This document shows positions 9,925 to 17,751 of a stretch of 64,000 nt of DNA, in pieces. Each line of letters opens with the position of its first letter. Positions within the stretch are counted from its first letter, which is position 1. Source of the DNA: Acidobacteriaceae bacterium (GTDB lineage Bacteria > Acidobacteriota > Terriglobia > Terriglobales > Acidobacteriaceae); NCBI GenBank assembly GCA_003134995.1, contig PLDC01000023.1, forward strand, positions 18,431 to 82,430, written 5' to 3'. Under the pieces are notes generated by a model. It was not told the DNA's origin. It saw only the letters and a list, made by a program, of their open reading frames with translations, and searched no databases. The translations under genes were made by a program, and so were the position numbers.

Positions 9925-12939
<3,015 letters not shown>

Positions 12940-12951
12940 GTGTCCGAGGGG

Positions 12952-13257
12952 CTAATCGCCGATAAATCTTAGGTATGTCTGCGGCTTTCCCTGACACTCG
13001 ACCGCAATCTCTCGAATTTTAGCCACTAACTCTCTCTCCTCTTCGTGGGAAAGCGTCTGCGCCAGGCGGTCGAGTTCCCTCACCAGTGGCCGCATTTGGT
13101 TAGTATTGAAAATCGTGTTGCTGTACGGATCGATCCATCCGAGCAAGGGGAAAGAGGCGTCATCGAAGGGCAAAATTTCATCAAGCAGCCCATTGCTTGG
13201 GAAAATCTCCTTGTATCTCTTTCCATCAATGTTCTGAAATGCGACTTTAAGGGGCAT
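12952..13257 (-). CDS. Hypothetical small cytoplasmic protein (101 aa)
   Basis: The ORF start overlaps the CYTH gene 3' end by 11 nt (13247-13257). No family recognised. Ends ...KPQTYLRFIGD. Confidence 0.55.
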   Translation of the reverse strand: MPLKVAFQNIDGKRYKEIFPSNGLLDEILPFDDASFPLLGWIDPYSNTIFNTNQMRPLVRELDRLAQTLSHEEERELVAKIREIAVECQGKPQTYLRFIGD

Positions 13258-13819
13258 ACTTGGCTCCTCTCACCGCGATAAACGTCATCTCTGCCGCTCC
13301 GCTCTTCGCCCGAGCTTTCCACTCCAGAAACAATCCTGCATAGTTCTTAGTAATGTAATCCGCCGGCTTCACGCTGAGCTTCTTTGCCGTAGCATCAATC
13401 CATCGCGGAGCGCCCTCGATCTCGCAAAAATTCCCGATGGGTGTCTCGTCCACGACGACCTGGCCTTTTCCATCCGCCCACTCGGCACGAAACTTCTCGT
13501 AGCGGAATGACGGCGTATATCCAAGTGCGCGCAAGATCAAATCCATCCGCTTGCCGTCGCCCACTGAAGTCTCCAGCTCCACGCGGCTGCTATGCCGTCC
13601 GGTCTTCTTCCCGGATTTATGCGTCAACGTCCAGTCTGAACCGTATTTGCGCAGCCGTAACAACTCCTTGCGCGCACGCAACACTTCTCCCGGCAGGTCA
13701 TATAACGTATTCATCTCATGAGTCCGCGGTGTCACCACGCGAAATCCGGCCCCACGGAGTTTACGCGCGAGCGCCCGCAAATCAGCCACGCGAAATTTGA
13801 TTTCGATTTCCTTGCTCAT
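13247..13819 (-). CDS. CYTH-domain protein (class IV adenylate cyclase / triphosphate tunnel metalloenzyme family)
   Basis: 190 aa. N-terminal EIEIKFRV (the ExExK motif that defines CYTH), then RLRKYGSDWTLTHK and VVVDETPIGNFCEIEG. Confidence 0.8.
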   Translation of the reverse strand: MSKEIEIKFRVADLRALARKLRGAGFRVVTPRTHEMNTLYDLPGEVLRARKELLRLRKYGSDWTLTHKSGKKTGRHSSRVELETSVGDGKRMDLILRALGYTPSFRYEKFRAEWADGKGQVVVDETPIGNFCEIEGAPRWIDATAKKLSVKPADYITKNYAGLFLEWKARAKSGAAEMTFIAVRGAKYAP

Positions 13820-13833
13820 CGGGGAAGATTGTA

Positions 13834-15072
13834 TTACGTCTCCCAGACCACAGGCTCAACCGGTCCGACCACAAACACCCATTGCAGCGCGCCCACCCAC
13901 GTAATCACCGACGTGATCACGAAAGGCCAATAAAAATGTCCAGTTCGTCCAACCAGGATTCCGGTGAGCGCGGGCGCAACTGCGCCTGCAAGGTTACCCA
14001 CAAAGTTCTGCGCCCCCATCCATCGCCCCACCGCGTGAGGACCCGCTAAAGTCTGTGTGACGGCGTTGAGATTTGAACTAACCAGGCCAAACGACGCACC
14101 AGCCAGAAGCAGCAGCACCACCAGAAGTTTGTCCGGCGCAGCTGCACAGCCCACCAGAAAGAGTCCGTTGCAAGCCATTCCCACCCCCATGAAAGTCTTG
14201 CGGACACGCGTTGGAGTGGCTCCGCCGGAAATCCATCGATCCGAAAGCCAGCCGCAGATCGGGGAAGACATGGCCGCTAGCAGAAACGTTGCGCCACCAA
14301 TCTTCGACATGCTCTCCGCAGAAAAATGACGTTCGCGCTGAAGATAAAAAGGCAGCCACGTCAGCAAAAAATATAGAAAGTAATTCGAGCAGAAATGTCC
14401 AATCCAGGTTCCCCACGAAGATCTATGCCGGAGAATTTCCACAAGCCCAGGACCCTGCTTCATGTCGAGCGCCCCCGTCGCGGCGGTGCGCGGCATCCAC
14501 CGAAGCCACGGAGGCAGCCACAACAGGCTTGCCAATCCGAGAACGACAAAAAACGGCCTCCAGCCAAAATGCGCCACCAGAGTTCCGCCGAAAAGAATCC
14601 CCAACGCCGGTCCCAGCGATTGGCCCGCTCCGACAATGGAATTGGCGAAGCCGCGCTGGTTTTCCACAAAGTGGTTCGCAAAAATCTTCGCGTAAGCCGG
14701 ATAAGCCACCGACTCGCCAGCCCCTACAATTACGCGGATGACGAGCAGCGCAGTAAAGGCATGCAGCGCGCCTGTGAACGCAGTGGCGGCCGACCACACA
14801 AAAAATCCGATGGCTAAAACCCACTTCACATCGAAGCGGTCGACCAGCCATCCGGCCAAAAGCTGCATGCAGGCATAGGTCCAGAAGAAAGCGGAAAGCA
14901 AAACTCCCAGCTGCGAGGCTGAGAGACGCAGTTCATCTTGCAGCAGCGGCGCCGCAACCGAAAGATTGGCGCGGTCGATGTAGTTGATGAAAACCGAAAG
15001 GCCGAGCAGGAGGAGAATGCCATTCATCCCGCTGGCGCGTGGAGCATCGTCGGACGCAGCAGTCGTAGCCAA
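13834..15072 (-). CDS. MFS transporter (anion:cation symporter-like)
   Basis: 412 aa with about 12 hydrophobic segments. FINYIDRANLSVAAP near the N-terminus is typical of ACS-type MFS. Confidence 0.85.
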   Translation of the reverse strand: MATTAASDDAPRASGMNGILLLLGLSVFINYIDRANLSVAAPLLQDELRLSASQLGVLLSAFFWTYACMQLLAGWLVDRFDVKWVLAIGFFVWSAATAFTGALHAFTALLVIRVIVGAGESVAYPAYAKIFANHFVENQRGFANSIVGAGQSLGPALGILFGGTLVAHFGWRPFFVVLGLASLLWLPPWLRWMPRTAATGALDMKQGPGLVEILRHRSSWGTWIGHFCSNYFLYFLLTWLPFYLQRERHFSAESMSKIGGATFLLAAMSSPICGWLSDRWISGGATPTRVRKTFMGVGMACNGLFLVGCAAAPDKLLVVLLLLAGASFGLVSSNLNAVTQTLAGPHAVGRWMGAQNFVGNLAGAVAPALTGILVGRTGHFYWPFVITSVITWVGALQWVFVVGPVEPVVWET

Positions 15073-15125
15073 GCCCAGCCATGCTATACCATCGCGCTCG
15101 TCGCATGGCGATCATTGCATGACGC

Positions 15126-16094
15126 TCAACTGAACGTCGGCAGCTTTACCAGATCGTTCTGCGGCACCGATTCCACTGGCTCGCCGGCTTTGCGCCAGGC
15201 CGTCAGTCCGCCGACAATTACGAACGTGTTGAATCCTTTTTCCCGCAGCAGGTGCGCCACCCGGGCGCTAGTCGCTTCGCGCGCTCAAGTACAGTACAGA
15301 TAAATGTCCTTGTCCTTGGGAAGGTTCTTGATTTCTTCCTCAAGATTATTGGGCTCGATGCGGATCGAGCCTTTGATCCGCTCTCCGCCGGAGTCGTAGT
15401 AGCCGTGGCTGCGAACATCCACAATCAGGACCTTGTTGGCGTCTTCCGATGCCAGGCGAGCGGCCAGCTCCTGAACCTGAATGCGCGGCACCACGCGATA
15501 AACCTTGTGCTTGCGAAACTGCACAATGCGATAAATCGCATACACAATCAGCGCGGCGACAATCACCGCTTCCATGGCTCGCCCGGCCGCGTGAAACCCG
15601 CTCAGGATCGCCTTCAGAAAATCGCGCGAAACATAACCCACCACAAGATATGTGATCGCATACACCAGAGCCCCAGCGAAATCCAGCTGCAGAAACTGCC
15701 AGAAGCGCATCTTCATGCTGCCCGCCAGCGGCGCAGCCATGGTGTTAACGCCAGGAATAAATTTCGCGATCACCAGCGTGACTTTGCCGCGCTTGTAGAA
15801 CGACTCCGCCGACCGCAGAATGCAGGTTTCCGGATTGATCGACACGCGGCACAGAAATCCCAGCAGCCCCCAGCCCATGTAGCGTCCCAGCCAGAACTGC
15901 ACCGTATCACCCAGCAGCAAAGCCGAAACTGCTGCCAAAAAGACGTACGGACCCCACAGCGCGTGAGCCGCGACCGCAGCTCCCGCCGCTACCAGCGCGA
16001 GCGCCGCAGGAAAAGGAAGCCCGATCGCCTCCGCCAGCAACAGGCCAAAGGTCAGGGCATATCCGTGACGCGCCATGAGCGCAAACAAATTCAT
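15126..16094 (-). CDS. DedA-family membrane protein fused to a C-terminal rhodanese domain; contains an in-frame TGA (15285-15287) in the rhodanese active-site loop (Sec candidate or nonsense mutation)
   Basis: DedA part: MNLFALMARHGYALTFGLLLAEAIGLPFP...GDTVQFWLGRY. Rhodanese part: LIVDVRSHGYYDSGGERIKGSIRIEP...KDIYLYCT-[TGA]-AREATSARVAHLLREKGFNTFVIVGGLTAWRKAGEPVE. The 53 codons after the TGA are open in the same frame and end at TGA 15126-15128. Start taken as ATG 16094 (MNLF...). Confidence 0.7.
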
Positions 16095-16219
16095 AAAGAC
16101 TGTTGGATAGGGAAAATCAGGAAAGGGTTCAATATAGCAAATGCGAAGGCACGGCGGAGGAGTTGCAAACGAAAAACTGCGGGACGACCTCGTCGTCCCG
16201 CTCACTGTTCAGTTGCCAT

Positions 16220-16573
16220 CTACTTGCTCATGGAATCGTTTTTCATCGCGTCACCCTTGATCATCTTGACGCTCATGACGTGGATTAAGTTTTGATCGGC
16301 ATAGACGTGGGCACTCAACTGCACATGATGTCCCTCGTGTCCCTTGAGTTCTTCGGGGTTCTTTACATCCCAGCTCTTGCCGTCTTTGTCATTGACGAAC
16401 GTGTACTTGTCGCCATCGGCTTTAACCGTACCCTTGAGCGTCATCAGCGGAGCTTTCGCATCCGCTTGGGTTTGCGACATGTTGTGATCTTGCGACATGC
16501 TCGAGTCCTGCGCGAAGGCAGTCAAGCTGATCGCGAATGACAGGGCCATCAGACCAACCATTAATTTCTTCAT
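16220..16573 (-). CDS. Small secreted protein, unknown function
   Basis: 117 aa. Signal peptide MKKLMVGLMALSFAISLTAFAQD. His/Met-rich mature part. Confidence 0.6.
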   Translation of the reverse strand: MKKLMVGLMALSFAISLTAFAQDSSMSQDHNMSQTQADAKAPLMTLKGTVKADGDKYTFVNDKDGKSWDVKNPEELKGHEGHHVQLSAHVYADQNLIHVMSVKMIKGDAMKNDSMSK

Positions 16574-16761
16574 TCGTTTGTTCCCTTCTTATTTTGAGAG
16601 TCTGGCCAGATTTCTACCTCTTACATCAGTACGTGTGTGGCTCGCGAACGGATTGTTGGTAGTTGGTGGTGTTTAAGGACGAAGAGGTTGCTGAGAATCG
16701 CGGAAAGTCAGCAAATGCAAAATGCCGGAAGCCGAAAGCCGGGAACCGGAAGCCGGTTTCT

Positions 16762-17751
16762 CTACTTCTCCCGCGCCACAACAAACTCTGGCGCCCACAG
16801 CAGAGCCCGTTTAATCTCGGAATCCGGGAAAGTGCACAGCGCCTTCTGCGCGGACTCCCCATACTGCGCGGCACGAACAGTCGCGGCTTCCAGAGATCCA
16901 TAGCGCCGCAGGATTTCCATGATCTGCGCATGGGTCACGCCGTTGAAAGCCCGCTCGCGCAGAATGGTTTCGATCTTGGCTCGTTCCTCCGCCGTGCAGC
17001 GCTCCAGTGCGTGGATCACCGCCATCGTAACCTTGCCTTCGCGCAGATCGCTCGCCACAGGTTTGCCCAAAACATCTTCAGATGCGGTCAGATCGAGCAC
17101 ATCATCCACGATCTGAAATGCCATGCCAAGATCGTGGCCATACTTGCCCAGCGCTTCTTCCTGCGCGGCCGTCGCCCCGCCAAGAATCGCTCCCATCCGC
17201 ATGCAAACCGAAAACAGGCAAGCGGTCTTGCGGTAAATGAGATCGAAATGCTCGTCGAGGGTAATCGGCTTTCCGAGCTTTTCCATCTGCAGCAGTTCGC
17301 CTTCAACCATCTGCTGCGTGAGTTCAATCAATGTGTCGAGAATGCGAAAATTGCGCTCCTGCACCGCGACTTTGAAAGCCTGCATGTAGAGCCAGTCGCC
17401 CGCCAGCACGCATTTCGAATTGCCCCACTGCGTGTTGGCCGCCGGACGTCCGCGGCGCGTTTTCGCCTCGTCAATGATGTCGTCATGCACGAGCGTCGCG
17501 GTATGAATGATCTCGACCACCGCGCCCAGTCGCACGGCCCCGCGCCCCTGGTAATCGAACAGCTTGGAAGAAAGAAAAAGCAGCGCAGGACGGATCCGCT
17601 TGCCTCCGCCGTTCCGCAGATACTCCCCTATCTCCGTGATAGCTTGCACGTCGGAGACGGTATCCTGCCCGAACTCTCCCTCCAGCGCCACGAGATCGTC
17701 GTGCAGCAGGTCGAAGATTTCCTTCCCGTTAATAATGGCCGGCGCGCTCAA
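16762..17751 (-). CDS. Polyprenyl diphosphate synthase (IspB-like, trans-isoprenyl)
   Basis: 329 aa. First Asp-rich motif LVHDDIIDEAKTRRGRP and second FQIVDDVLD. Confidence 0.9.
   Translation of the reverse strand: MSAPAIINGKEIFDLLHDDLVALEGEFGQDTVSDVQAITEIGEYLRNGGGKRIRPALLFLSSKLFDYQGRGAVRLGAVVEIIHTATLVHDDIIDEAKTRRGRPAANTQWGNSKCVLAGDWLYMQAFKVAVQERNFRILDTLIELTQQMVEGELLQMEKLGKPITLDEHFDLIYRKTACLFSVCMRMGAILGGATAAQEEALGKYGHDLGMAFQIVDDVLDLTASEDVLGKPVASDLREGKVTMAVIHALERCTAEERAKIETILRERAFNGVTHAQIMEILRRYGSLEAATVRAAQYGESAQKALCTFPDSEIKRALLWAPEFVVAREK

Follow-up and report, generated by a model that had tools for sequence, protein, structure and literature searches.

An in-frame UGA in the rhodanese active-site loop of an acidobacterial DedA-rhodanese gene, very probably read as selenocysteine

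The window analysed here is a stretch of 64,000 nucleotides from an Acidobacteriaceae bacterium (GenBank assembly GCA_003134995.1, contig PLDC01000023.1, positions 18,431 to 82,430 of the forward strand; all positions below are counted from its first letter unless stated otherwise). Its minus strand carries a gene for a DedA-rhodanese fusion protein whose reading frame is interrupted by a TGA. From the ATG at 16094 the open reading frame (ORF) runs to ...KDKDIYLYCT and meets TGA at 15285-15287, which is codon 270; past this TGA the same frame reads AREATSARVAHLLREKGFNTFVIVGGLTAWRKAGEPVESVPQNDLVKLPTFS, that is 52 sense codons, down to another TGA at 15126-15128. We propose that UGA 270 is very probably decoded as selenocysteine (Sec), with the aid of a selenocysteine insertion sequence (SECIS) just downstream. 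Loci with TGA at this codon are called Sec forms below, and those with a Cys codon there Cys forms; pN and pS denote nonsynonymous and synonymous divergence. The features of the locus are listed here.

15126..16094, minus strand: complete recoded gene, with 269 codons, UGA (predicted Sec) as codon 270, 52 further codons and a stop; predicted product 322 aa
15633..15995, minus strand: VTT/DedA membrane domain, aa 34-154 (PF09335, 50.9 bits against a cut-off of 33.9)
15189..15473, minus strand: rhodanese domain running across the TGA, aa 208-302 (PF00581, 50.1 bits against a cut-off of 22.2)
15291..15293, minus strand: codon 268 (TGT), the canonical rhodanese catalytic Cys, first in the active-site loop
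15285..15287, minus strand: UGA codon 270, predicted Sec, loop position +2, motif C-T-U; TGA in 161/161 Sec-form sequences
15129..15284, minus strand: 52-codon tail after the predicted Sec, with the post-loop helix, a core beta strand (FVIVGG) and the next rhodanese helix
15126..15128, minus strand: true stop, TGA in the window and TAG, TAA or TGA among the 80 genome loci compared, unlike codon 270
15254..15268, minus strand: core hairpin of the putative SECIS, GCGCC-CGGGU-GGCGC, with a 5-bp stem and the loop CGGGU at 15259-15263
15225..15290, minus strand: zone of suppressed synonymous variation, codons 269-290 (pS 0.24 against 0.60-0.63 in the flanks)

Both halves of the protein are recognized by Pfam above the gathering scores, the N-terminal half as a member of the DedA/VTT family (PF09335) and the C-terminal half as a rhodanese homology domain, whose match covers profile positions 3-101 of 102 and whose active-site loop opens with the catalytic Cys. 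This Cys268 is invariant in all homologues and aligns with the active-site Cys of PDB 6mxv (YFYCGGGFRS), so that the TGA takes loop position +2. The first-pass annotation of this DNA, made from the sequence alone, had reported an in-frame TGA splitting the rhodanese active-site loop, and the ORF reading together with the PF00581 match across the TGA bears this out. It had counted 53 codons in the tail, a number that we correct to 52 sense codons, and had placed the hairpin GCGCC-CGGGU-GGCGC at plus-strand 15254-15268, 16 nt past the TGA, where it is indeed found. The tail, which includes the peptide AGEPVESVPQNDLVK, had also been said to supply the rest of the rhodanese fold; the extent of PF00581 (aa 208-302) and a helix-strand-helix arrangement in an AlphaFold2 (AF2) model agree with that. 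The model, of a Cys orthologue, has a mean predicted local distance difference test score (pLDDT) of 69 and is confident only in the DedA half (10-residue blocks mostly 79-94); the rhodanese half lies at about 40-75, and only secondary structure was taken from the model. There, a strand at 263-268 ends at the catalytic Cys, and the tail forms a helix (272-285), a strand (289-294) and a helix (297-302). Because the tail supplies a helix, a core strand and a second helix in this model, a product ending at codon 269 would be predicted to lack core elements of the fold. The peptide spanning the predicted Sec reads DIYLYCTUAR.

A TGA codon lies one mutational step from Cys, and the first-pass annotation had named a recent TGC/TGT-to-TGA nonsense mutation or a sequencing error as the trivial alternative. 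We examined 160 related loci, consisting of 80 GTDB species representatives (metagenome-assembled genomes, MAGs, of Sulfotelmatobacter/Acidobacteriaceae, at 79-98% protein identity) and 80 metagenome contigs. TGA occupies the column in 80/80 genome loci and in 80/80 metagenome loci, while TAA or TAG is found in 0/160; the window and these loci together give 151 distinct 120-nt sequences around codon 270. The 52-codon tail is intact and in frame in 159/160 loci (79/80 genome loci). The remaining one, a long-read MAG (L022), has its last ~10 tail codons frameshifted around position 10900-10933 of that locus (…VPAERSGEIADV followed by a stop), which is probably an assembly indel.

Past the RNA element (codons +21 to +52 after the TGA), the tail shows pN of 0.087 and pS of 0.63, i.e. 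a pN/pS of 0.14, as compared to 0.19 for the rhodanese part upstream of the TGA, so the tail is equally constrained. Such a value at high synonymous divergence indicates that the tail is translated, since an untranslated tail would fill with stops and frameshifts; the tail is under strong purifying selection. We therefore see next to no chance that the TGA is a recent nonsense mutation, the mark of a pseudogene, or a fault of sequencing or assembly in one genome: it recurs in 160/160 independent loci across species, samples and sequencing technologies, and it is followed by an intact tail held by purifying selection despite near-saturated synonymous sites, where a pseudogene would have gathered stops and frameshifts. 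What speaks for that explanation, besides the single mutational step, is a near-identical contig with CGA at codon 270, by which the site can vary within populations. This contig (L163; ENA ERZ27249804 k141_1189220; 1,261 nt) equals window positions 15097-16357 except for one base at 15287: C replaces the T of the Sec TGA, so that the codon becomes CGA (Arg) and a protein of 322 aa (P0001) is called. It is unlikely that a single difference would fall exactly on the Sec codon by chance. The CGA may represent an allele in the population by which the need for selenium is lost, or else an error.

Protein databases give the same picture from the annotation side. Among the best 120 cluster representatives, 98 end exactly at ...Y[LV]YCT; these short entries are called at 263-310 aa, mostly 269 aa, without about a third of the rhodanese domain, and include five that NCBI names 'VTT domain-containing protein [Candidatus Sulfotelmatobacter sp.]'. 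Another 21 reach full length and carry Cys in this column, forming Sec/Cys pairs with the UGA genes, and 1 has Arg. Carriers of the TGA form include the contigs CAVWMB010000006.1 (4.7 Mb) and CAWDXI010000002.1 (4.4 Mb), as well as the SPRUCE 317 MAG JBEKJF01, at 98% identity to the window protein. The motif YC(T/S)C..EA(T/S)SA, which the first-pass annotation gave for relatives, is seen in the full-length homologues as YCTC[AVTI]R[ED][AG]TS with Cys at the TGA column, and the column overall holds Cys or TGA throughout, one Arg allele being the sole exception.

The hairpin begins 16 nt past the TGA, and its stem occupies +19..+23 and +29..+33 as counted from the U of UGA. In the set of 151 distinct sequences, the segment from +18 to +34 (AGCGCCCGGGUGGCGCA) is invariant except for one stem C>U change, which keeps a G.U pair, and seven loop G>U changes at +26; the neighboring third positions +17, +35 and +38 are highly polymorphic. 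The RNAalifold consensus retains the 5-bp stem with its 5-nt loop as the sole structure, and we dropped the extended lower stems of the single-sequence minimum free energy (MFE) fold accordingly. When 81 genes were aligned by codon, synonymous heterozygosity averaged 0.45 over the gene but 0.09-0.13 across codons 269-286, and the 12 nine-codon windows with the lowest values all fall between codons 269 and 291. The Thr codon just before the UGA (15288-15290) is four-fold degenerate, and is ACU in 150/151 Sec forms as against ACC, ACG or ACU in Cys forms; the near-invariant ACU suggests a codon-context requirement for Sec insertion. We note that the synonymous suppression persists for ~30 nt past the 5-bp hairpin (15225-15253, +34 to +62), through the purine-rich GGGAAAAAGGA. 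No base pairing or covariation was supported that would explain the suppression from +34 to +62, and mutual-information analysis gave no supported covarying helix (+35:+43 is an isolated pair).

Orthologues that carry Cys allow the constraint on the RNA to be separated from that on the protein. DNA for nine Cys-form orthologues (L164-L172) was fetched by exact-protein look-up; a metagenome scan with a Cys-form query returned TGA forms only. The neighbors of these nine loci are mostly TatD, YajQ, polyprenyl synthase, a small ORF, the DedA-rhodanese gene, MFS (major facilitator superfamily), CYTH and SecA, and from this similar gene neighborhood we take them to be orthologous. Five normally free third positions vary in 2/755 cases in Sec forms and in 16/45 cases in Cys forms (Fisher 8e-20), while control third positions in the Sec forms vary in 359/906 cases (2e-108 against the five frozen sites). 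Since the frozen sites are free in the Cys orthologues, the constraint goes with the TGA rather than with the protein or neighboring genes. All five stem pairs are kept in 3/9 Cys forms (L166, L169 and L170), and L168 keeps four; these retained hairpins are likely fossil SECIS elements. In Cys forms the loop-encoded Arg278 is replaced by Lys or Gln.

These data also bear on the reading that the TGA is a genuine stop, by which the gene would encode a 269-aa DedA protein with a rhodanese stub, and the downstream DNA would be a terminator or attenuator, a regulatory site for the MFS gene, or a small ORF. Gene callers and the NCBI annotation (a 269-aa 'VTT domain-containing protein') side with it, and a GTG-initiated ORF of 44 aa does exist at 15126-15260. 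Yet the eight codons between the TGA and this GTG are also conserved as protein, the constraint on the tail keeps to codon phase and to the frame of the upstream ORF, and the tail completes the rhodanese fold; the Cys orthologues, with a similar neighborhood and mostly an MFS gene downstream, are contiguous and show no such nucleotide constraint. The terminator reading of the hairpin was dropped, as the hairpin has no U-tract and no terminator-like site was found overlapping it. We consider a genuine stop extremely unlikely.

The SECIS-type element that the first-pass annotation had suspected is thus present and conserved specifically in TGA forms, and it conforms to the consensus model of bacterial SECIS elements (bSECIS; PMC13188914, Fig. 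2A). This model asks for an apical loop of 3-9 nt carried by 4-16 bp of upper stem (here the 5-nt CGGGU on 5 bp); a G at loop position 1 or 2, as a rule with G or U next (here G at loop position 2, then G, both invariant in the 151 distinct sequences); a distance from UGA to loop of 16-37 nt (here 21 nt, +3 to +23); and an MFE of -7.5 kcal/mol or lower, which the bare 15-nt hairpin reaches marginally with -7.6 (-9.1 kcal/mol once the flanking A residues are included, and -17.1 when the 60 nt from the UGA on are folded). Like known bacterial elements, with E. coli fdhF as the prototype, it lies in the coding sequence directly 3' of the UGA, and 21 nt past that codon a GC stem presents a small apical loop that contains G; it differs in being very short, with a conserved stem of just 5 bp below which no lower stem or bulge is supported.

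The protein itself is related to a known selenoprotein type. According to selenoproteome reviews, the rhodanese CxU family is an established kind of prokaryotic selenoprotein with TKB26178.1 as a reference, and the top NCBIfam match of the rhodanese half is NF041203 (rhodanese_LYCAU, 'rhodanese-related (seleno)protein'). BLASTP against TKB26178.1 gives 36% identity (E 2e-21) with the U column aligned to the TGA column without gaps: the reference (sequence from the paper supplement) reads ...IVLYCAUPNEYTSARLA...GG..W and the window ...IYLYCTUAREATSARVA...GG..W. The CxU motif of NF041203 is present here as LYCTU, and both have a single rhodanese domain with the (predicted) Sec two residues past the catalytic Cys. 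The two differ in architecture, TKB26178.1 being a 150-aa stand-alone protein with an apparent N-terminal signal peptide, while the domain here is the C-terminal part of a 322-aa DedA fusion and so departs from the stand-alone single-domain format of NF041203 (model length 126). On these sequence comparisons, we regard the DedA-rhodanese Sec protein as an orthologous group distinct from NF041203.

With respect to architecture, the closest relatives are the DedA-rhodanese fusions of COG0586 (e.g. P. aeruginosa PA1209), which likewise combine an N-terminal PF09335 with a C-terminal PF00581 and in which the role of the rhodanese has been called unclear (PMC10127716). The descriptions of such fusions in two papers give no Sec form, unlike the protein described here with its predicted Sec in the active-site loop. 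DedA is unmentioned in the two selenoproteome reviews and in the main text of the deep-Sep paper; a full-text literature search for DedA and selenocysteine gave nothing relevant among the matches listed, and one for Sulfotelmatobacter and selenocysteine brought up no account of it. Neither the recoding mechanism nor the CxU type of rhodanese selenoprotein is new; it is the Sec form of the DedA-rhodanese fusion that appears unreported.

Sec decoding is documented in the lineage. Acidobacteria with selenoproteins were included in a survey of 2006, and a list of Sec users includes Occallatibacter riparius, a cultured member of the Acidobacteriaceae, with selenoproteins of the AhpD-like, deiodinase-like and FdhA kinds. 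The best 120 matches to the O. riparius FdhA query are all fragments of roughly 820-900 aa that begin past the Sec codon, except that one is a longer fusion; the O. riparius FdhA protein record itself (P0121) is a fragment of roughly 890 aa that starts past the TGA, though sourced from NCBI. One such fragment lies on a 606-kb contig (ERZ25039501 contig_23301; L173 9407-12676) that is tied to Sulfotelmatobacter via the adjacent FdhB (285 aa). Its FdhA frame reads IENQARI-TGA-HSASVPGLG, the canonical Sec column, followed by the SECIS-like hairpin GUGCCC-GGUCU-GGGCAC, which the hairpin of the window resembles; no sel genes were found within 10 kb of this FdhA. The comparative evidence thus indicates that the lineage decodes Sec, at the level of family and genus rather than for the source genome. 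A reassignment of TGA in the genetic code was dropped, TGA being an ordinary stop elsewhere in the window (e.g. at the end of SecA). Other TGA-interrupted genes were sought in the window and none was credible, the best candidate (12177, minus strand) being antisense to SecA.

Several results weigh against the selenoprotein assignment. Searches by tblastn with E. coli SelA, SelB and SelD gave no match in the 64-kb window and the 80 genome loci (about 20 kb each, about 1.5 Mb in total), and an ARAGORN scan of the window and of L001-L080 came up without any tRNA or tRNA-Sec. The 66-nt fold of the RNA (-19.5 kcal/mol) is no better than chance when compared to dinucleotide shuffles (z = +0.48), so we dropped any claim of thermodynamic significance and take the significance of the hairpin from the comparative data only. 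There is no compensatory covariation, the stem almost never varying, and nothing past the 5 bp is supported. Rfam searches, run over the window with gathering thresholds and over 15050-15400 with permissive E-values, brought up small RNAs at chance level only; no Rfam family of bacterial SECIS elements was identified to test against. Finally, the NF041203 match scores 91 bits, below the cut-off of 115, as compared to 71-83 bits for the Cys orthologues and 167.9 bits for the reference TKB26178.1. This cut-off, together with the plain VTT-domain names used by NCBI, leaves the Sec DedA-rhodanese proteins out of the family model.

A further reading is a read-through of the UGA that does not use selenium, with Trp, Cys or Arg inserted by a near-cognate tRNA and the hairpin only stimulating. 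In its favor, the comparative data show recoding and not directly the inserted amino acid, and Sec decoding is documented for the lineage rather than for the source genome. However, orthologues have Cys in this column and the related NF041203 family has U, the element fits the SelB-type bSECIS model, and a canonical Sec-type FdhA is found on the contig tied to the same genus. To our knowledge, hairpin-stimulated programmed read-through of stop codons is not established for bacterial chromosomal genes. Read-through of this kind is in our view very unlikely, and Sec at codon 270 is the reading that we retain with high confidence.

As to mechanism, UGA 270 would be decoded by SelB and Sec-tRNA(Sec), recruited by the SECIS hairpin in the coding sequence 16 nt downstream. 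Comparative evidence indicates that the full 322-aa product is made, with the DedA/VTT domain, the rhodanese domain and a loop of Cys268-Thr-Sec270. A basic stretch, QFRKHKVYRVVPR, follows the last membrane helix and, by the positive-inside rule, suggests that the rhodanese domain faces the cytoplasm. Cys268 and Sec270 could then form a chalcogen pair, acting either as a selenenylsulfide redox couple or as a persulfide/perselenide carrier, and the rhodanese half would be an active redox or sulfur/selenium-transfer site tethered to a membrane transporter half.

For the DedA half, the four charged residues reported as essential in DedA flippases of undecaprenyl phosphate (UndP), namely E39, D51, R130 and R136 in YghB numbering (PMC10127716), were compared with COG0586 members of that kind. 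E39 is kept, while D51 is replaced by Ala, R130 by Lys and R136 by Asn (15747-15770, KFIPGVNT; 15995-16034), and these substitutions are conserved in Sec and Cys forms alike, so that the residue pattern of a flippase is not found; the alignment to YghB is at 22-24% identity, which leaves the D51 column less secure than the KFIPGVNT motif. The UptA models of NCBIfam score 34-44 bits against cut-offs of 250-300. With one of the four essential flippase residues kept, a substrate other than UndP is possible. A link to the handling of selenite by DedA is speculation: in its fullest form, which we hold to be doubtful, the non-flippase DedA half would move or present selenite, thiosulfate or polysulfide, and the Cys-x-Sec rhodanese would capture or reduce it at the membrane. 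If true, this would be the first integral-membrane selenoprotein that handles chalcogens, and it would give a mechanistic basis to the old link between DedA and selenite and to DedA-rhodanese fusions generally.

The distribution of the two forms bears on how the Sec codon evolved. A neighbor-joining tree of the 160 Sec forms and the 21 Cys forms scatters the latter over at least 10 positions (the count is approximate, since internal branches are short and without bootstrap). Many Cys forms have their closest relative among the Sec forms; one of them, P0002, shares 92% identity with the nearest Sec form as against 77% with the nearest Cys form. Across the Sulfotelmatobacter/Acidobacteriaceae clade Sec appears to be the norm, and the scattered Cys forms with their leftover hairpins suggest that Sec is ancestral there and has repeatedly been replaced by Cys. 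The scattered Cys forms, some with a fossil hairpin, offer a natural series for studies of Sec-to-Cys replacement.

If UGA 270 is read as Sec, an annotation error is corrected, with databases at present recording a truncated protein in more than 100 soil and peat Acidobacteria, and an integral-membrane protein is added to the short list of acidobacterial selenoproteins. A selenium requirement would be implied in peatland Sulfotelmatobacter. That more than 100 species would retain Sec in the active-site loop speaks for a working redox or chalcogen-transfer site and not for a degenerate appendage.

Around the gene, the minus-strand block at 13247-17751 holds a polyprenyl synthase, a small ORF, the DedA-rhodanese gene, an MFS transporter and a CYTH gene, with SecA beyond. 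This block is common to most of the related loci, in Sec and Cys forms, sometimes with DinB/DUF1569 inserted or a neighbor missing. The ATG at 16094 was chosen as the start of the DedA-rhodanese gene because homologues called at 269 aa open with MNLF or MDLF. A strong terminator-like hairpin (16179-16201, minus strand; 10 bp followed by a U-tract) stands between the upstream small ORF and this start, and its position inside the longer ORF from GTG 16205 argues for the ATG as well. This layout makes it probable that the putative selenoprotein gene is transcribed from a promoter of its own. The product of the upstream small ORF (16220-16573) looks like a secreted protein and matches no Pfam family, and the ORF keeps its syntenic position.

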